This document shows, piece by piece, positions 15,730 to 63,057 of a stretch of 64,000 bases of DNA. The position numbers were made by a program, and so were the translations under genes. The notes beneath the pieces were generated by a model, which ran no database searches, had not been told where the DNA came from, and was given only the letters and a program-made list of their open reading frames with translations. Position 1 is the stretch's first letter; every line of letters begins with the position of its first letter. The DNA is from Candidatus Onthovivens sp. (GTDB lineage: Bacteria > Bacillota_I > Bacilli_A > RFN20 > CAG-826), in the NCBI GenBank assembly GCA_035270825.1, contig DATESL010000004.1, forward strand, positions 118,854 through 182,853, read 5' to 3'.

Positions 15730-15803
15730 TGGAGCATCAAACGGGAATCGAACCCGCATCCTTAGCTTGGGAAGCTAATATTCTACCACTGAACTATTGA
15801 TGC
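15730..15803 (-). tRNA. tRNA-Gly (anticodon CCC as I fold it)
   Basis: The reverse complement GCATCAATAGTTCAGTGGTAGAATATTAGCTTCCCAAGCTAAGGATGCGGGTTCGATTCCCGTTTGATGCTCCA folds into a cloverleaf: acceptor GCATCAA/TTGATGC, anticodon stem TTAGC/GCTAA, loop TTCCCAA, GTTCGATTC T-loop and encoded CCA. Confidence 0.8.
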
Positions 15804-19740: not shown

Positions 19741-19809
19741 CTATTTTACCACAATAGAGTAAAAAATAAAGCACTAAATATTTTGTTAAAACACGACCAT
19801 TAAGCCATT

Positions 19810-20370
19810 TATTTAGAACTTCAGATAAGTGTAAACATTTAAGAACTTTAAATGAGAAAGAATGAATTTTTCTTATAAATTTACTTAATTTAAGTGAAGA
19901 AAATAGACTTAATTATTCAAAATGGATAAAAAAATTGGGTACCACAGAGGAAATTAATCCGATATAAGTAAAATAATTTAATTATTTTATTACTTGTTCA
20001 ATACCCAATTTAAATTAAAAATAATGAAAAATATATTTATTGGAAAAATAAAAAATAGTGCAGATCCTGTGAGATTTCTCACATTTCATATTATTTCTAA
20101 TACTATCGAATTCAACACTAATTATATAATAATATTAGTTTTGTTTCATTGTGTCAATGTTTATTTTACAAATATTTCTTATATTTAAGTTATTGTGGTT
20201 ATATTTTTTAAAAATGGAGATAAATATGGTTAAAAAGGTATATTGCTTTGTAGTATTATGATTGGTTGTTTGTCGTTTACTAATCCTTTTTCATATGAGT
20301 GTATCATAGATAACTCTAATGTTTTGGATGATTTATTAGAAGTAAAATTTGATTTTTATAAAATTTAAAG
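19810..20370 (+). repeat. Copy A (decayed) of a tandemly duplicated small-gene cassette of about 0.5-0.65 kb
   Basis: 19841-19990 aligns with 20486-20630 (aagaactttaaat...ttcttataa.tt..cttaatttaa...cttaatta...). 20261-20340 aligns with 20762-20840 (attggttgtttgtc.tttact.atcctttttcatatgag). Copy A carries an in-frame TGA and a frameshift. Confidence 0.75.
20226..20368 (+). pseudogene. Frameshifted, truncated paralogue of the small lipoprotein gene at 20729-20965
   Basis: The ATG at 20226 runs into TGA after 11 codons. The +1 frame continues MIGCLSFTNPFSYECIIDNSNVLDDLLEVKFDFYKI*, matching LIGCLSFTDPFSYERIIDSSHVLDDLLEDD of copy B. Confidence 0.6.
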
Positions 20371-20454
20371 TTTAAATTCAAAAAAAAGATAGTTATTTTG
20401 TCTACCATGTTTATACTAATTTAACTAAAAATCAATTTATAAAAGAGAATCTTT

Positions 20455-20965
20455 TACTTAAAGATGGTGATTATTTTAGAAATTTAAGAACTTTAAATAA
20501 GAAAGAAAAAATTTTTCTTATAAGTTTGCTTAATTTAAAAGATGAAAATAGGCTTAATTATGATAAATGGTTAAAAAAAATTGAGTACAACAGGTGGAGA
20601 ATTAACTCCTGTAAGTAAAATAAATCAATTACTTTGCTTACGTGTTCCATACTCAATTTATTTAAATTATATTAAAAATAATTTTATTTGTCAATGGTTT
20701 CAAATTTTTATTAATTTAGGAGGTGTTTATGATAAAAAAAGGATTGTTTTGTTTTATTTTAATTGGTTGTTTGTCCTTTACTGATCCTTTTTCATATGAG
20801 CGTATCATAGATAGCTCTCATGTTCTTGATGATTTATTAGAAGACGATAACTTTAAATTAGATTTTAGGTCTGGTCTTTATGATTTTAATTTGAAAAATG
20901 AAATTAAGCTGGTTCATGTTGCTGAGTATAATTATCAATCGAAAATACAGCAGGAAAATATGTAA
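20455..20965 (+). repeat. Copy B of the duplicated cassette
   Basis: It contains an 80-codon open frame (20376-20618) ending ...FRNLRTLNKKEKIFLISLLNLKDENRLNYDKWLKKIEYNRWRINSCK* that has no in-frame ATG. It also contains the small lipoprotein ORF. Confidence 0.7.
20729..20965 (+). CDS. Small predicted lipoprotein (78 aa), function unknown
   Basis: AGGAGG sits 5-6 nt upstream of the ATG at 20729. Signal peptide MIKKGLFCFILIGC has lipobox LIGC. The ORF-track start at 20723 is a GTG two codons upstream. Confidence 0.5.
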   Translation: MIKKGLFCFILIGCLSFTDPFSYERIIDSSHVLDDLLEDDNFKLDFRSGLYDFNLKNEIKLVHVAEYNYQSKIQQENM

Positions 20966-21011
20966 ACATATTCTTGATACACTTGATACAGATTTTGGAA
21001 GACTTAAGAAT

Positions 21012-21036
21012 AAAAAAACACGATAGTTATCGTGTT
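21012..21036 (-). terminator. Intrinsic terminator downstream of the tRNA-Asn/tRNA-Glu pair
   Basis: aaaaacacgatagttatcgtgttat is identical to the element after tRNA-Gly. Confidence 0.7.
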
Positions 21037-21046
21037 ATTTGTACTT

Positions 21047-21123
21047 TGGTGACCCGTACGGGATTCGAACCCATGAATGCATGCGTGAAAGGCATGTGAG
21101 TTAAGCCACTTCTCCAACGGGCC
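21047..21123 (-). tRNA. tRNA-Glu (UUC)
   Basis: Reverse complement GGCCCGTTGGAGAAGTGGCTTAACTCACATGCCTTTCACGCATGCATTCATGGGTTCGAATCCCGTACGGGTCACCA, with anticodon loop CTTTCAC. Confidence 0.85.
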
Positions 21124-21134
21124 ATCTAATAAAA

Positions 21135-21209
21135 TGGCGCTGACTAAAGGATTCGAACCTTCAACCGATCGGTTAACAGCCGATTGCTCTACCGTTGAGC
21201 TAAGTCAGC
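21135..21209 (-). tRNA. tRNA-Asn (GUU)
   Basis: Reverse complement GCTGACTTAGCTCAACGGTAGAGCAATCGGCTGTTAACCGATCGGTTGAAGGTTCGAATCCTTTAGTCAGCGCCA, with anticodon loop CTGTTAA. Confidence 0.9.
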
Positions 21210-21548: not shown

Positions 21549-21576
21549 TTAAAAAAAGAGAGTAAAACTCTCTTTT
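21549..21576 (-). terminator. Intrinsic terminator ending the Tad-like operon
   Basis: Stem aagagagt (21556-21563) / actctctt (21567-21574), followed on the minus strand by a T run of 7. It starts right at the pilin stop codon. Confidence 0.7.
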
Positions 21577-21796
21577 AATTAAATGATATTAAATCGATTT
21601 GACTAAACTCATTTTCACTATTCTTTTCAGAATTTTCTTGGGTTGTTGGTTTATTAAGTTCAGTCCCAGCACTTGTAATGTTATTAGCAACTTCATTAGC
21701 TTTTGTTGAAAAAGCTTGATATAAAACTCCCGCTACAACTGAAAATATTGCTAAAACTAAAACTACTCCTAAAATTTGTCCCTTAATTTCTGCCAT
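21575..21796 (-). CDS. Flp/type IV pilin-like small protein (candidate major pilin)
   Basis: 73 aa. AGGAGG lies 8 nt upstream. The sequence reads MAEIKG then QILGVVLVLAIFSVVAGVLYQAF (a 6-aa charged leader ending in Gly, then a hydrophobic helix of about 22 aa), followed by a polar tail. It is the last gene of the ATPase/platform operon. Confidence 0.6.
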   Translation of the reverse strand: MAEIKGQILGVVLVLAIFSVVAGVLYQAFSTKANEVANNITSAGTELNKPTTQENSEKNSENEFSQIDLISFN

Positions 21797-21810
21797 TAAA
21801 TGATCCTCCT

Positions 21811-22164
21811 TTAATTATAAATACTTATAACAGCATATCTTTTTATATTTATATTGATGGTTTCATGAGCCATGATGAGTGGCTGATACTTCGAACTCAG
21901 ATAATATTCAAAAATATCTCCTTTCTTATACGCACTGATATCGGGGTTAACCTCAATTAAATAAACATGATAATTTTCTTCAGCATATTTTTTTAAGTCT
22001 GCTGAAATTTGAGCTTCTTTTGAAATTTTATAGCTAATGTATGTGCTTAATGAATCTAGATTAGAGTAATTAAGTTGGATTAAAACAACATCTACTCCAA
22101 ACATAAAAGCAAAGAAGATAATAAATATTGATAGTATTGTTCCAATTTTAGAACCCATTAGCAC
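21811..22164 (-). CDS. TadE-like minor pilin/pseudopilin candidate
   Basis: The N-terminus M(L)MGSKIGTILSIFIIFFAFMFGVDVVLIQ resembles the TadE N-terminal hydrophobic motif (..E/x-F-A-L-x-x-P..LFG-I-V-D/E). 117 aa. Confidence 0.5.
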   Translation of the reverse strand: MLMGSKIGTILSIFIIFFAFMFGVDVVLIQLNYSNLDSLSTYISYKISKEAQISADLKKYAEENYHVYLIEVNPDISAYKKGDIFEYYLSSKYQPLIMAHETININIKRYAVISIYN

Positions 22165-22834
22165 TATCTCCTAATAAACCAACAACACAATAAACAATTA
22201 AAAGCATAATAATTCCACTGCCAACAATTGAAAAAATATTAATATTCTCAAAAACTTTGGTTCTTTGGTTAGAACGAAAGGTTTCATTAGTATTTTTAAA
22301 GTTCTCAAAAATGTTGATAAATTGATTTAGATAAATATTTGAATTGCCGCAATTGGTGATTTCATATAAAGAAATCATCACTTCTTCAATTGTTTTATTT
22401 TTAAAAGAAGCAGAAAAATTAATAAATGGGGTGATTGATTTATCATTATCAATTTCTTCAATCAAGACATTAATTTTTTCTTTCATTTTATCACTAGCAA
22501 ATTCAACGATAGAGCAAAGCGAAGTATAAACATTTTGCTCATTATAAAGATAAATTCTAAGATATGAGAAAATCTCAATAAATTCATCGTTTAATTTCTG
22601 TTCAATTTCAAGTTCCTTTTTCGAATATCGATAGAAAAAAACATAGTTGGTTGTTGCTAAAAATATTGCTCCCATTGCCAGGTAAATGATGTTCTTAGTC
22701 AGGAATATTATGAGAATGCATGTTACCAATACTATTGTATTTATAGTTCCTAAGAACATCATTTCTTTTTTGTAGGAAAGTCCTAGACTTTCAATTCTTC
22801 TTTTTAGATTTTTCATCTTTAAAATCTCCTTCAT
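22148..22834 (-). CDS. TadC-like inner-membrane platform protein (T2SSF-type architecture)
   Basis: Two N-terminal TMs, a helical cytoplasmic region of about 120 aa, and a C-terminal TM pair. It is a paralogue of the upstream gene. The real start may be MKNLKRR at 22816. Confidence 0.55.
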   Translation of the reverse strand: MKEILKMKNLKRRIESLGLSYKKEMMFLGTINTIVLVTCILIIFLTKNIIYLAMGAIFLATTNYVFFYRYSKKELEIEQKLNDEFIEIFSYLRIYLYNEQNVYTSLCSIVEFASDKMKEKINVLIEEIDNDKSITPFINFSASFKNKTIEEVMISLYEITNCGNSNIYLNQFINIFENFKNTNETFRSNQRTKVFENINIFSIVGSGIIMLLIVYCVVGLLGDSANGF

Positions 22835-23522
22835 TTACAAATCTCAAATCAAATAAGCGATTGAGATAGAGGAATAAAAACCCAATAAAAACTAAGAAAA
22901 AGAAGAAAACGCCATATTTGTAAAAATCCATTTTTAAGATTGATTGATAAAAAATAGATAGTGATATTTGCACAATAATTAAAATAACAATTGTTAAAGT
23001 CCATAAAATGAAGAATTCAATAAAGTGCATCTTTGCACTCTTTTTAAAACTTTCTAAGGAATTTTCAATCTTACGACTATCAAAGATTAAGAGCTGAGCA
23101 ATTTGTAAGATATTCCCACCATTATAGTTATATTGATCAATAAGTTTTAAAAAGACCTCAAAAAGATTTAAATTAAAATAGTCTTTTAGATATTTAATTT
23201 TTTCTTCAATTTGTAAATGTTCGATCGTTTCAACCTGAGCTTTTAGTTCCTTAGAAAAAGAATCTTCAATATGATTAAAGGTATTATTTAAAGAATTATT
23301 GACGCTTAATGTAATAATAAAATTATTGATAAAGGAAATACATTCATGTGTTCTTTTATCAATTTTGGCATATTTTCGATATTTCCTTTCAACGAAGAGA
23401 AAAAAGAATAAATTAAAAATTAAAAACAAGACTAAAGTCATAATTAAATCACGAACTGTATAGTAATAAATACCACTCAGTAATATTGTGACGCTTAGAT
23501 AGATTAGAGATCGTTTAATCAT
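22791..23522 (-). CDS. TadB-like inner-membrane platform protein (T2SSF-type architecture)
   Basis: Same 2 TM + helical domain + 2 TM layout. The ...NGGNILQIAQLL... segment is in the position of the T2SSF conserved Gly. Confidence 0.55.
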   Translation of the reverse strand: MIKRSLIYLSVTILLSGIYYYTVRDLIMTLVLFLIFNLFFFLFVERKYRKYAKIDKRTHECISFINNFIITLSVNNSLNNTFNHIEDSFSKELKAQVETIEHLQIEEKIKYLKDYFNLNLFEVFLKLIDQYNYNGGNILQIAQLLIFDSRKIENSLESFKKSAKMHFIEFFILWTLTIVILIIVQISLSIFYQSILKMDFYKYGVFFFFLVFIGFLFLYLNRLFDLRFVNEGDFKDEKSKKKN

Positions 23523-23525
23523 AAT

Positions 23526-24581
23526 TTAAAACACTCCTATGGGCTCTAAGAGCCATTCGTTATTAAAATTTAGGAAATTTTCACTACTTAAATTAAGTTC
23601 TTTTTCAAAATCACTTGGAAGTTCAAAATAAGTACTTGGGTATTGATAAAGACTGTAATATTTGTGTTTAAAATTAGTACCGATTTCGTTAATAAATCGC
23701 GAGATACTTCCATCTTCATTAACTCTTTTTTTCACATAAATTAGTATTTTAAAGTGATCATAAATATCAAATAAAACTTCTTTGAATTTCAAGTTATCGT
23801 TCGAAATCATGCACATTCTTGCCATTCTTTGATACATATAATCGGCTTGTTTAGCATGAAGAGTTGTAATTGTTGGATGCCCTGTCATGGCCCCATTTAA
23901 AATAGAAATCATTTCTTTTCCTCGCGATTCACTAATAACTAACCAATCTGGGTTACTTCTCAGAGCATTTTTGATCAATGCTTCAAAATTAATATTAGTT
24001 CCGTCACGAATCAACCATGTTTGTAAATCAATTTTGCCATCAAGAAAACTCACATCTAACTCATCAACATTATCAATTACAATTACTCGTGTATTTTCAT
24101 TAAAGATTGTTAGTAAATATTTTTGAAATTCAGTTTTTCCACTACTTGTTTCGCCGCCAATTACAACAGATAGTCTATTTTTGATAAATAAATTAATTAG
24201 TTTTAAACATTTTTTTGTAACGAAGCGTGAATCGGCGTCAATTCTTAGTTTATCACTGCTAATACGAATGGAAAAATTAATAGCTTGTTCTCTACTTTTT
24301 CTTGAAATAATTGGATGAGTCGCATTAATTCGATATTTGCCACATGAGATATCTAAAATCGGGTTGGAGAGATTAAACTGAGAATCGCTCAAGTTACCAA
24401 TTTGACGAATAAAATCAAAGGCTTCTTTTTGATCTATTTTCATTCGGGCTTTAGTTCTTCCTTTATAATTATCTTGATAAAAAAGATCTTCGCCATTAAA
24501 TGAAATATCTGTTATATCGCTAACATCAATAAGTGGTTTTAAAAAGCTTGTCTCAATAAATTCAATTAATTGATTATTCAT
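23526..24581 (-). CDS. TadA/CpaF/VirB11-family secretion ATPase
   Basis: Motifs: ITDISFNGEDLFYQD (N-terminal domain), Walker A GGETSSGKTE, Asp box RVIVIDNVDEL, Walker B DWLVISESRGKE, His box GHPTITTLHA. 351 aa. Confidence 0.85.
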   Translation of the reverse strand: MNNQLIEFIETSFLKPLIDVSDITDISFNGEDLFYQDNYKGRTKARMKIDQKEAFDFIRQIGNLSDSQFNLSNPILDISCGKYRINATHPIISRKSREQAINFSIRISSDKLRIDADSRFVTKKCLKLINLFIKNRLSVVIGGETSSGKTEFQKYLLTIFNENTRVIVIDNVDELDVSFLDGKIDLQTWLIRDGTNINFEALIKNALRSNPDWLVISESRGKEMISILNGAMTGHPTITTLHAKQADYMYQRMARMCMISNDNLKFKEVLFDIYDHFKILIYVKKRVNEDGSISRFINEIGTNFKHKYYSLYQYPSTYFELPSDFEKELNLSSENFLNFNNEWLLEPIGVF

Positions 24582-24583
24582 AA

Positions 24584-24991
24584 TTAAACAATTGTCCCCC
24601 TATCAATTTTAAAAGAAATATAACCATCAATTTTATAATCTAGATAATAATTAGCAACAACTCTAATTTGAATGGCATCTGGACGAGTTGAGAGATCAAT
24701 CACATAGTCTTCATTTTTAAATTTAAAATACTTATAACCAATTTTATAAGAACTAATCTTATTTTGAAAAATATATGAAAAATATTTTTCGATATCTTTT
24801 TCTAGATTGTCTTTTAAGAAGTAAAACACTTGTCCATCCTCGTCTTTTGTTCCTCTTGTAACATTGTTTTCTAAAATTGAGGTTGGAATATTATATAAGG
24901 CACGATTAAAACTCATACCAGTCGTCGAAATTACTAAGGTGACTAGGGTCGTACCAACAATTGTTAATGAGAAAAATAATGGGGCAATCAT
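24584..24991 (-). CDS. Membrane-anchored protein of the pilus operon (possible TadF/minor-pilin-like); function unknown
   Basis: Single N-terminal hydrophobic helix MIAPLFFSLTIVGTTLVTLVISTTG, then a beta-rich domain of about 110 aa. It is translationally coupled on both sides. Confidence 0.4.
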   Translation of the reverse strand: MIAPLFFSLTIVGTTLVTLVISTTGMSFNRALYNIPTSILENNVTRGTKDEDGQVFYFLKDNLEKDIEKYFSYIFQNKISSYKIGYKYFKFKNEDYVIDLSTRPDAIQIRVVANYYLDYKIDGYISFKIDRGTIV

Positions 24992-26067
24992 TAAATAATA
25001 ATCTCCTTTAATAATTCATCTTCAATTGGTTCTTTAATCTCGCCAACAATATCGAATTTTCCTTCATTTGGATTTTCACCAAAAATAAATTTTAAATATA
25101 TTTTTAATGTATATGAATACTGACCAAAGTTTTTCAATTCAATTTCATACTCGGTTTCTTTATGTGCTGCTTCTTCTTCAAAAGGGAAATAAAGTAAACC
25201 CTTACTATAGAAACGCTTGCCTGGCTCGCCCTTATCTAGAAAACTCATATTAGTTAAATAGTCAATATAGTAGGGCAAACTAAAGTTGATATCGCAACTT
25301 CGTAAACTAAAATCAACATCAACTGGGATGATGGGTCGATAATTGCTGACATCAGAATAAAGAATATATCGCAAACCATTATACTTTTTCATGACATATA
25401 GTCGTGGTTTACATGTCTTATAGTCAAAATTTAGTCCGTCTTGATAAAGATGAAATTTTAAACCTAGGTTATTGAAATCAATATGAGAATACTCTGGAAT
25501 ATAGTTAATAAGATCAAAGTTATTTAAAATCAAAATATCACCAGAAATAATCGCTAACCCCTCTTGATAGAGAAAATAATGTGGTAAAAACATTTGTTTT
25601 TGCGTCAAAACAATTTGGTTTTCCACAATTGGTAAAAAAAGCGGGACGCGAAAAAGAATCATATCAAGCTCGCTATAATTTCCCTTGACCCGACATTCAA
25701 ATTCAACTTCTCCATAAACTTCACTTCTTGGAACCATCAGGTGATAGGTAAAATAGTCAAAATGATAAAGAGGTGCAACAACTTTTTCTGTCTTTATAAG
25801 CTCCTTTTCTTTATAGAAATTAAAGTAAATATCTGGAACAGTTTGAGGAGAAGCATCGCGGAAGGTAAAAATTTGTGAATAGGAAAAATAGCTTGACTTA
25901 CTGATATATTGATTGAACTTATCTAATTTAATTTCCCAAGTCGTATCAAATTCAAATTGACGATTAGTAGCACTAATTATCGAACGCTCGTTATTTTGTG
26001 CTCCATTAAAAACAAGTGATGGTATAAATGAAAATAATATTAAGAGTTTTGCTAGTATTTGGAACAT
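24991..26067 (-). CDS. Secreted or N-terminally anchored protein, first gene of the pilus operon; function unknown
   Basis: Signal-like N-terminus MFQILAKLLILFSFIPSLVFNGAQ. 358 aa, Tyr/Phe-rich, with no motif I recognise. Confidence 0.4.
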   Translation of the reverse strand: MFQILAKLLILFSFIPSLVFNGAQNNERSIISATNRQFEFDTTWEIKLDKFNQYISKSSYFSYSQIFTFRDASPQTVPDIYFNFYKEKELIKTEKVVAPLYHFDYFTYHLMVPRSEVYGEVEFECRVKGNYSELDMILFRVPLFLPIVENQIVLTQKQMFLPHYFLYQEGLAIISGDILILNNFDLINYIPEYSHIDFNNLGLKFHLYQDGLNFDYKTCKPRLYVMKKYNGLRYILYSDVSNYRPIIPVDVDFSLRSCDINFSLPYYIDYLTNMSFLDKGEPGKRFYSKGLLYFPFEEEAAHKETEYEIELKNFGQYSYTLKIYLKFIFGENPNEGKFDIVGEIKEPIEDELLKEIII

Positions 26068-62598: not shown

Positions 62599-62700
62599 AG
62601 AAAATTATCTCTTAAATTCCGACCCATGAACAAAACCCACAGCAAATCCACCAAAAAAAACATTGATGGTGGGCTATAAATTAGTATGTCTGGTGGAGAT

Positions 62701-63057
62701 GCGGAGAGTCGAACTCCGGTCCATATATAGCCCCACAAAGAGCCCTACAGTTTAGTAAATATTATTTATTTAACGTTTTAATCAACATTTACAAACTTTG
62801 AACGCGAGATATTTAATGTTTTCATTGCTGACCTAATATCTAAGCCATCACCTATCTTCTTTTTTTACAAACGGTCTTACAATAAGAAGCTAACATGTAA
62901 GGGTTCGCGCACAACCTCTAAAGAGATTTTAATACTGCACTAAGCAGCAAATGCGAGGTTTAATTGTCTGTTGCCAGATAATTGATTGTTGGTGTTTAAC
63001 GCCACCACACGACTGCTCTCTAAGCCAAACTATATATGTCGAAACCATAACATCCCC
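62701..63057 (-). ncRNA. ssrA: tmRNA (SsrA)
   Basis: The reverse complement starts GGGGATGTTATGGTTTCGAC and ends GGACCGGAGTTCGACTCTCCGCATCTCCACCA (tRNA-Ala-like acceptor/T-arm). The tag frame GGC AAC AGA CAA TTA AAC CTC GCA TTT GCT GCT TAG gives GNRQLNLAFAA* (62940-62975). Confidence 0.92.

Follow-up and report, generated by a model that had tools for sequence, protein, structure and literature searches.

The pilins of Tad filaments, as seen by cryo-electron microscopy, are 40–60 residues long and all helical, with an unbroken α1 helix and no C-terminal domain, and bacterial type IV pilins have been described as keeping Glu5 without exception (PMC10710030). The archaeal substrates of the peptidase EppA carry a leader of 5–13 residues that ends in Gly, followed by Gln at +1 and a conserved Glu at +5 (PMC3875500), and Tad and Epd systems both have a pair of platform proteins of the TadB/TadC type (Denise et al., PMC6668835). 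Here we describe a 73-residue protein encoded on a contig of Candidatus Onthovivens sp. (GenBank DATESL010000004.1, positions 118,854 to 182,853; this 64,000-nucleotide stretch is the window to which all unprefixed coordinates refer). The protein, which has no Glu5, is the last product of a seven-gene operon, and we think that this operon probably builds a type IV filament of the Tad/Epd kind with it as the major pilin. Positions with a plus sign are counted from the residue that follows the putative cleavage site.

A small gene closes a seven-gene operon

The operon comprises seven tightly packed or overlapping genes on the minus strand (26067..21575; Table 1), which encode, in order, a secreted protein, a bitopic protein, an ATPase, two paralogous polytopic membrane proteins (B and C), a 114-residue protein and the 73-residue protein, the translation of which is MAEIKGQILGVVLVLAIFSVVAGVLYQAFSTKANEVANNITSAGTELNKPTTQENSEKNSENEFSQIDLISFN. 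The terminator-like hairpin behind the last stop codon is the only such site on the minus strand between 21200 and 26400. Because the G+C content of the window is low (about 29%), short open reading frames (ORFs) are common by chance, and the reality of a gene of this size must therefore rest on comparison. Judged in that way, the frame is a real gene and not a chance ORF, since a syntenic homologue is found in all related loci that offer enough DNA: a small ORF lies about 1.75–1.9 kb downstream of the ATPase gene in 78 of 78.

The original prediction, which was made from the letters of the window alone, had read the ORF and its translation correctly, on what is the minus strand. Its description of the N terminus, a six-residue leader MAEIKG followed by Gln, with no Glu5 and no EY motif, also stands, and neither Glu5 nor an EY motif occurs in any of the 76 sequences compared below. 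The polar part after the hydrophobic stretch had been put at about 35 residues; it has 44.

Distribution among uncultured Bacilli

With the 73-residue protein alone as the query, a word-index search returned only two clusters (47–48% identity), both with the same synteny, a near-identical N terminus and a diverged tail. The ATPase has about 1,000 homologues at 45–60% identity, and a scan with one genome per species yielded 80 loci. The operon architecture is alike in all related loci. Their carriers are all uncultured metagenome-assembled genomes from gut, rumen and similar samples, labelled as Bacilli, Bacillales, Mollicutes, Erysipelotrichaceae or Candidatus Onthovivens. Metagenomes from manure, biogas, food and gut contain DNA of the window organism itself.

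When an alignment of 50 homologues was used for the word-index search, 724 proteins were found, none with a Pfam domain and all unnamed or ‘hypothetical’ except for one with the JGI label ‘pseudopilin PulG’. An exhaustive profile search of 1.84 billion representatives gave 356 clusters at 50% identity (E ≤ 1e-3). Among the 150 clusters listed, the match begins at residue 1 in all but two, for which the start codon seems to have been placed too far upstream; M-[S/G]-E-x-K-G opens each of the 58 cluster sequences that were read. All of the homologues found are bacterial.

An invariant leader and a hypervariable tail

Conservation was counted over the 76 distinct sequences that the 78 loci gave, that of the window included. 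Met1, Glu3, Lys5, Gly6 and Phe18 (+12) are invariant, position 2 is Ser in 67, Gly in 5 and Ala in 4, and position 4 is Ile in 62, Leu in 10 and Val in 4. The leader is followed by Gln in 69 sequences, Ser in 4 and Thr in 3, with one His variant elsewhere in the family. Further along, +2 is Leu or Ile, +3 is Leu in 75 of the 76, +4 is Gly (69), Ser (4) or Thr (3), +5 is Ile, Val, Leu or Met, +6 is Val, Ile or Leu, and +23 is Phe in 73. An uncharged run of at least 18 residues follows Gly6 in every case, and the layout of a class III signal, M-x(2,3)-K-G with at least 18 uncharged residues behind it, is accordingly present in 76 of 76, next to genes for a secretion ATPase and platform-like proteins. 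Conservation of the Lys-Gly-Gln junction among homologues had been named as a check on the candidate pilin, and the comparison bears it out, with M-x-E-x-K-G|Q conserved across the family.

Mean pairwise identity is 61% over residues 1–30 and 34% over the remainder. A conserved N-terminal helix joined to a hypervariable exposed part is, as a pattern of sequence, that of a pilin; for a Sec signal peptide and its cargo, one would expect the opposite. The family ranges from 45 to 79 residues in length (median 63; predicted mature length 39–73). A tail as long as that of the window protein is therefore peculiar to it and its near relatives and does not characterise the family at large.

The window protein ends in DLISFN (21575..21600), which can be compared with the hydrophobic-aromatic C-terminal ends of its homologues. 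A strict [L/M][L/M]x[F/Y] end (for example, LLTF, LLKF or LMKF) occurs in 39 of the 76, and in more if NLTF and DLTF are counted. The homologues with such an end are the longer ones, with the ATPases closest to that of the window; the shorter and more distant ones are without it. Two loci have tandem duplicates of the small gene, located about 1,838 and 2,020 nucleotides after the ATPase gene in L029 and about 1,776 and 1,979 nucleotides after it in L033. In both pairs the N-terminal halves are identical and the tails differ, and the two L029 copies also differ at +1, with Ser in one and Gln in the other.

Predicted structure and relation to known pilin families

AlphaFold2, given a 30-sequence alignment, predicts a single continuous helix over residues 3–45 and non-helical residues 46–73; the confidence score (predicted local distance difference test, pLDDT) is above 90 for residues 11–40 and below 50 for residues 48–65. 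The predicted single helix agrees with the cryo-electron microscopy picture of Tad pilins, and the family has, by prediction, the small, all-helical mature form of the Flp/Tad type. A Foldseek comparison of the model with PDB structures gave no hits, as expected for a lone helix, and nothing among PDB sequences scored below E = 0.49 against the pilin profile.

Tests against described pilin families came back negative in most respects. The Flp motif, G|xxxxEY, occurs in 0 of the 76 sequences, whereas the Flp references of annotated Tad loci in Photobacterium and Azospirillum do carry it (G|VTAIEY and G|ITALEY), and the TadE/F proteins encoded beside those references all have Glu at +5. Flp_Fap (PF04964) does not match the window protein at E ≤ 1 or, among the 25 families listed, any of 50 family members at E ≤ 10, and DUF361/Class_IIIsignal (PF04021) matches neither the window protein nor any of the 50. 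Of the features of EppA substrates, the leader length, the terminal Gly and Gln+1 are present and Glu+5 is absent. The PilFind rule of Imam et al. (2011), used for Gram-positive pilins, calls for [G/A/S]-x4-[D/E] and at least 14 uncharged residues in a protein of fewer than 350 residues with one N-terminal transmembrane helix (PMC3244431). The size and the single helix conform, and the core of the rule is found in none of the 76 pilin candidates and in none of 72 members of the 114-residue family. The searches that the original prediction had proposed, with Flp_Fap, with class III signal models and with PilFind-type rules, thus all return without a match.

The sub-threshold Pfam and NCBIfam matches among the 50 members are to DUF6112 (6 of 50), LapA_dom (6), TsaT (8) and Pilin_N (4; best E = 0.0026), none of them usable; UpsA was matched by 2 of 50 and ComGC, GspH and GspI once each. 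The weak matches to Pilin_N, UpsA, ComGC, GspH and GspI lean towards filament proteins and are not significant after multiple testing. A match to a known non-pilin family, which had been named as a reason to give up the pilin assignment, did not appear in the Pfam and NCBIfam scans either. As far as sequence and gene context reach, the family is pilin-like in layout and setting and a member of no described pilin family.

A VirB11/TadA-type ATPase and two platform-like proteins

Only the ATPase matched a Pfam or NCBIfam model among the seven operon proteins; the other six had no match in either collection. Its NCBIfam scores fall from VirB11 (111.8 bits) through the TadA type (95.1), TrbB (78.7) and FlaI (73.8) to ComGA (58.6), PilT (41) and PilB/GspE (25–30). 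Against PDB sequences, the family profile scores highest with Helicobacter VirB11 (93.8 bits) and another VirB11-like protein (93.3), followed by Archaeoglobus fulgidus GspE (88.7), CpaF (70.5) and FlaI (62.8), and the single sequence scores best with the archaeal A. fulgidus GspE. By these comparisons the ATPase belongs to the VirB11/TadA/archaeal group, within which profile scores do not place it.

B and C are paralogues (hhalign probability 93.9%, E = 1.5e-7), which fits the TadB/TadC pair of Denise et al. NCBIfam gave weak matches of the membrane proteins to UpsF (twice) and ArlJ/FlaJ (once), the hhalign comparison of B with a TadB reference was not significant (E = 0.076), and profiles of B, C and the 114-residue protein had no hits in the PDB. 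Pfam TadF was matched by one of 86 proteins drawn from the families of B, C and the 114-residue protein together (E = 0.0014). An AlphaFold model of C built without an alignment had a pLDDT of 49 and was discarded as unusable. For the 114-residue protein, a start at the ATG at 22155 suits the family alignment better than one at the GTG at 22164.

The order ATPase–B–C–114-residue protein mirrors the tadA–tadB–tadC–(tadD)–tadE order of annotated Tad loci. There is no secretin gene in the operon, and none is expected in a monoderm. The presence of an ATPase of the PF00437 family and two paralogous membrane proteins in the operon supports the original view of a candidate pilin in a Tad-like setting.

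A shared leader in conjugative plasmids of Bacillota

The plasmid collection was the only annotated set searched. The closest ATPases in it are CpaF/VirB11 proteins of conjugative plasmids of Bacillota (25–34% identity, 100–160 bits), with hosts that include the Bacillus cereus group, B. subtilis, Paenibacillus larvae, Enterococcus faecium, Listeria and Clostridium perfringens; these proteins outscore proteobacterial CpaF, VirB11 and TrbB (65–88 bits). In the five plasmid stretches that we read, homologues of B, C and the 114-residue protein flank the ATPase gene among genes for VirD4, VirB4 and TrbC/VirB2. Local hmmsearch of plasmid ORFs gave a best E of 6e-21 for the C profile, 1.6e-7 to 8e-3 for B and 5e-7 to 3e-4 for the 114-residue protein, and positional analogues of the 135-residue protein matched marginally (E = 0.02–0.07). 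hhalign also joined C to a plasmid protein labelled FlaJ by PGAP (96.9%); as such ‘FlaJ’ proteins match no NCBIfam model, the label is only the annotator's name. A homologue of the 73-residue protein is absent from the five stretches.

The matches to the 114-residue profile include pLS20-type proteins of 118 residues on plasmids of B. thuringiensis and P. larvae (L089:3430-3786 and L088:2548-2904). They begin MGELKG|FILSLLLF and MSELKG|AIFSILIL, that is, with a six-residue leader like that of the 73-residue family, followed by Phe or Ala. That the leader precedes these residues on plasmids argues that M-x-E-x-K-G is a functional signal common to modules of Bacillota and not a chance N terminus, and that Gln+1 would be a trait of the 73-residue family and not a part of the signal. 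A Tad-like module, composed of an ATPase, a pair of platform-like proteins and a small protein with a leader, thus appears to be present in the conjugation regions of several plasmids of Bacillota. We found no description of this module as a pilus system; a 2022 review of conjugation in the Bacillus cereus group mentions a VirB11 homologue and no pili (PMC9673590).

Three plasmids have a gene for a CPBP-family intramembrane endopeptidase within a few kilobases of the CpaF/VirB11 module: E. faecium pZB18 (L087:1-102), Listeria pFV3 (L090:11584-12042) and a C. perfringens plasmid (L091:1025-1465). No A24 peptidase is annotated in these three stretches. On pZB18, two paralogue-like ORFs of 50–51 residues flank the module (L087:5026-5178 and L087:9086-9241), one annotated and the other not; both have a polar N terminus and one hydrophobic helix, and they end in ...FFKNMI and ...FFQNKMI. 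The ORF at L087:9086-9241 stands where the window has its candidate pilin gene.

A candidate Glu5-less pilin and its alternatives

On balance, we favour a reading in which the 73-residue protein is the main subunit of a type IV filament of the Tad/Epd kind, one that has lost Glu5 and would be assembled by the products of the seven-gene operon. This reading is supported by the setting, with a PF00437 ATPase, two paralogous membrane proteins of about 230 residues and two small proteins whose six-residue leaders end in Gly, and by the synteny in 78 of 78 loci, the N-terminal conservation, the tandem duplicates, the single long predicted helix, the leader held in common with plasmid proteins and the weak matches to filament proteins.

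In the mechanism that we propose, the prepilin would insert into the membrane with its N terminus in the cytoplasm, and a prepilin peptidase encoded elsewhere would remove M-x-E-x-K-G after Gly6. The ATPase and the two paralogous membrane proteins would lift the subunits from the membrane, with the conserved hydrophobic helix forming the core of the filament and the variable polar tail covering its surface; the 114-, 135- and 358-residue proteins, going by position and topology only, may be minor, priming or tip components. The Glu5 of most type IV pilins forms a pair with the charged N terminus of the subunit next to it. The new N-terminal Gln may cyclise to pyroglutamate, which would remove the N-terminal charge and could make a Glu5 partner dispensable. 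Two observations speak against this idea: pilins of Methanococcus maripaludis keep both Gln1 and Glu5, and 7 of the 76 members have Ser or Thr at +1. The filament would probably let its carriers, in the gut or in manure, adhere to host material or to other cells.

Several results weigh against a pilin. An acidic residue at +5, and likewise an EY motif, is found in 0 of the 76 sequences, and the 114-residue family also has no acidic residue at +5 (0 of 72). No curated pilin model in Pfam or NCBIfam matched the window protein or 50 homologues. The matches to platform proteins are weak: of 86 proteins scanned, among them 58 members of B or C, three matched Pfam T2SSF (best E = 2.3e-4), and hhalign comparisons of B, C and the 114-residue protein with proteobacterial TadB, TadC and TadE/F were non-significant, with references of 2–4 sequences (two for TadB and TadC), too few to make the negative a fair one. 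None of the seven operon proteins has the ParA-like ATPase domain of TadZ/CpaE. A search for RNA sequencing runs found only DNA runs. Finally, we scanned 1,371 ORFs of at least 100 residues, from the window, 86 chromosomal loci and the plasmid stretches, using a relaxed A24 active-site motif in hydrophobic proteins and phmmer with two real peptidases, and only the two positive controls were detected, with no A24 prepilin peptidase in the 64-kb window or within 7–10 kb of any locus. Other families (YhhN, Lit, acyltransferase, MFS, MBOAT and MatE) account for the polytopic membrane proteins of the window. In Bacilli the gene for the prepilin peptidase (ComC) often lies at a distance from the pilin genes (PMC3244431), and the absence of one near these loci is therefore not decisive; with no peptidase gene nearby, cleavage after Gly6 is what we infer.

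The plasmid modules invite a broader and more tentative proposal, in which the operon represents an unclassified branch of type IV filaments confined to Bacillota. It would be chromosomal in AT-rich uncultured Bacilli of gut, rumen and manure and plasmid-borne in pLS20- and pZB18-type plasmids, as a Gram-positive mating or aggregation pilus. Such a branch would be marked by the M-x-E-x-K-G leader, would have dispensed with Glu5 and might be matured by a peptidase acting in trans or by a non-A24 enzyme. We regard this as a possibility and not as our expectation.

The same modules also lend themselves to an account without a filament, which seems to us unlikely. The 73-residue protein could stay uncleaved, as a single-pass protein and fixed accessory (for example, an anchor or stator) of an ATPase–membrane machine akin to the VirB11 conjugation modules of Gram-positive bacteria. 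The missing Glu5 and the lack of a prepilin peptidase near any locus agree with this, as do the top scores of the ATPase family profile, which fall on VirB11 structures, and the nearest ATPases of the plasmid collection, which are CpaF/VirB11 proteins encoded beside VirD4, VirB4 and TrbC; the invariant M-x-E-x-K-G, being cytoplasmic, could be a contact site for the ATPase or the platform. However, the operon is chromosomal, has no gene for VirB4, VirD4 or a relaxase and sits between housekeeping genes in conserved synteny. Filament subunits typically have features of the kind seen here, namely a hypervariable exposed tail, tandem duplicates and one long helix, and the Gly that closes a short charged leader before the helix, in the 114-residue protein as well, is the class III layout.

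Quite improbable, although compatible with a pilin, is the further claim of descent that the original prediction had raised, namely that the family keeps an archaeal EppA-type junction and is an intermediate between Epd and Tad pili. Gln+1 in 69 of 76 members, the small size and predicted all-helical form, the weak Pilin_N and UpsA matches and the affinity of the single ATPase sequence for A. fulgidus GspE point in this direction; some archaeal pilins also lack Glu5 (PMC3875500; PMC10710030), and Tad has been reported to derive from Epd-like archaeal systems (PMC6668835). The junction itself does not bear the claim, as EppA substrates keep Glu5, the 50 members have no DUF361/Class_III match, Gln is not invariant and the same leader stands before Phe or Ala on plasmids and also resembles the leaders of Bacillus Com pilins. 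In addition, the family profile puts VirB11 above the archaeal ATPase, and all homologues found are bacterial.

The least credible reading, which the conservation pattern leads us to reject, takes the N-terminal 29 residues as a Sec signal peptide and the C-terminal 17–50 residues as a released signalling or antimicrobial peptide: the charged N-region, the hydrophobic core, Ala-Phe at 28–29 in most homologues and the variable C-terminal part, with [L/M][L/M]x[F/Y] ending about half of them, are in its favour, but signal peptides usually evolve faster than their cargo and the supposed signal is here the best-conserved part, with invariant positions; moreover, at −3, counted from Ala28, most homologues have Leu, Val, Tyr or Thr in place of a small residue, the predicted helix continues past the supposed cleavage site to residue 45, and no gene for peptide processing, export or a receptor lies in the operon.

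Features of the operon and its surroundings

Table 1. The operon of the candidate pilin, with the signals of its last gene (window coordinates).
Feature	Position	Strand	Description
358-residue protein	24991..26067	-	N-terminal signal peptide; candidate surface or tip component; no family match; highly divergent
135-residue bitopic protein	24584..24991	-	N-terminal hydrophobic helix without leader; candidate assembly protein or minor subunit; no family match
Secretion ATPase, 351 residues	23526..24581	-	VirB11/TadA/archaeal GspE-FlaI group; Pfam T2SSE, 3.8e-20
Polytopic membrane protein B, 243 residues	22791..23522	-	Probable TadB-like platform subunit; paralogue of C
Polytopic membrane protein C, 228 residues	22148..22834	-	Probable TadC/FlaJ-like platform subunit; paralogue of B
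114-residue protein	21811..22155	-	Starts MGSKIG, then hydrophobic helix; no Glu5; probably a TadE-like pseudopilin or a minor pilin
Candidate major pilin (predicted prepilin), 73 residues	21575..21796	-	Leader MAEIKG, hydrophobic α1 segment, polar variable tail
Leader codons, M-A-E-I-K-G	21779..21796	-	Putative cleavage after Gly6, before Gln7
Ribosome-binding site, AGGAGG	21810..21805	-	8 nucleotides 5′ of the ATG; read from the sequence
Intrinsic terminator-like hairpin	21576..21554	-	10-bp stem and T-run, directly 3′ of the stop codon; closes the operon

The operon is flanked by housekeeping genes, those for guanylate kinase and thymidine kinase on one side and that for acyl carrier protein with two tRNA genes on the other. 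The latter, tRNA-Glu(ttc) and tRNA-Asn(gtt), lie at 21047..21209 (minus strand), just downstream of the acyl carrier protein gene beyond the operon. Elsewhere in the window, a tmRNA gene occupies 62691..63057 and a gene for tRNA-Gly(ccc) 15730..15803, both on the minus strand.

The 1.3 kb from 19741 to 21046 have no long ORF. Two small plus-strand ORFs in this interval (20243..20368 and 20723..20965) share a lipobox-like N-terminal segment, IGCLSFT[N/D]PFSYE[C/R]IID.S.VLDDLLE, the sequence of which suggests a duplicated or decayed small lipoprotein gene.

Homologues of the 358-residue protein (for example, L009:5375-6508 and L001:5568-6683) are only 13–22% identical to that of the window; some have a lipoprotein-type signal (LFSCG or FVCG) and some have Ser-rich stretches. 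The more distant relatives (the L047–L085 group, with less than about 50% identity in the ATPase) have an extra ORF of 100–140 residues before the operon, about 1.3–1.5 kb upstream of the ATPase gene. Its product looks cytoplasmic and has a recurrent ...INNEFF... motif; the ORF is absent from the window, where the guanylate kinase gene follows on the other strand.

Implications

A filament with a short helical pilin is a kind already known. What appears to be undescribed is the family without Glu5 and with Gln1 and a six-residue leader, together with its operon, its spread in gut Bacilli and the leader that it shares with plasmids. Glu5 is treated as universal in bacterial type IV pilins, and the rules for finding pilins rely on it; a whole conserved family that does without it, present in every related locus read, would mean that real systems escape rules of this kind. 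The 724 proteins, or 356 clusters, would also be a natural case in which to study the purpose of Glu5, especially if Gln1 is converted to pyroglutamate. The carriers, uncultured Bacilli that abound in animal guts and have reduced genomes, have surface structures that are almost undescribed, and with six of the seven operon proteins lacking a family assignment the operon may represent an unannotated surface machine. The shared leader, in turn, hints that Gram-positive conjugation systems, usually called pilus-free, may carry a related filament, which bears on the spread of plasmids in liquid culture.

Comparison with known systems

Flp/Tad pilins resemble the family in form, being very small (40–60 residues, against a predicted mature 39–73), all helical and without a globular domain. 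The loci are also alike, with the pilin gene at the edge of an operon in which the gene for a TadA-like ATPase is followed by those for two separate platform-like proteins (ATPase–B–C) and for a TadE-like small protein. Flp pilins differ in having Glu5-Tyr6, the Flp motif and a leader of about 18–23 residues, whereas the 73-residue family has no such motif and a leader of six; genes for TadV, TadZ, CpaB and a secretin, which belong to Tad loci, are absent from the window operon.

The Epd pilins of M. maripaludis share with the family a leader of 5–13 residues ending in Gly and Gln at +1, and the small Epd pilins are 67–76 residues in total (PMC3875500). The Epd system also has two single-domain platform genes (PMC6668835), to which those of B and C would correspond. 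Epd pilins are archaeal and keep Glu+5; the 73-residue family never has Glu+5, has no DUF361 match and no EppA-like peptidase nearby, and is all bacterial. Archaeal PilA-type pilins (Pilin_N; Haloferax and Sulfolobus) are likewise without Glu5 (PMC3875500) and have a continuous α1 helix, but they are larger, with a C-terminal domain, and the Pilin_N matches are below the curated threshold. There is no evidence for common descent of the two beyond the hydrophobic helix.

The six-residue leader resembles those of Bacillus Com pilins, the leader of B. subtilis ComGC being a short one with Glu-Lys-Gly before the cut. Com pilins differ from the family by Phe+1, Glu+5 and a globular domain, and the window ATPase is far from ComGA (58.6 against 111.8 bits for VirB11). 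A peptidase gene at a distance, as proposed here, would have a parallel in these pilins, since the gene for their peptidase ComC usually lies apart from the pilin genes (PMC3244431).

The CpaF/VirB11 modules on plasmids of B. thuringiensis, P. larvae and C. perfringens and on pZB18 and pFV3 have the closest plasmid ATPases, with homologues of B, C and the 114-residue protein adjoining. They sit among VirD4, VirB4 and TrbC/VirB2 genes, whereas the window operon is chromosomal, in a conserved neighbourhood with tdk, gmk and a gene for acyl carrier protein.

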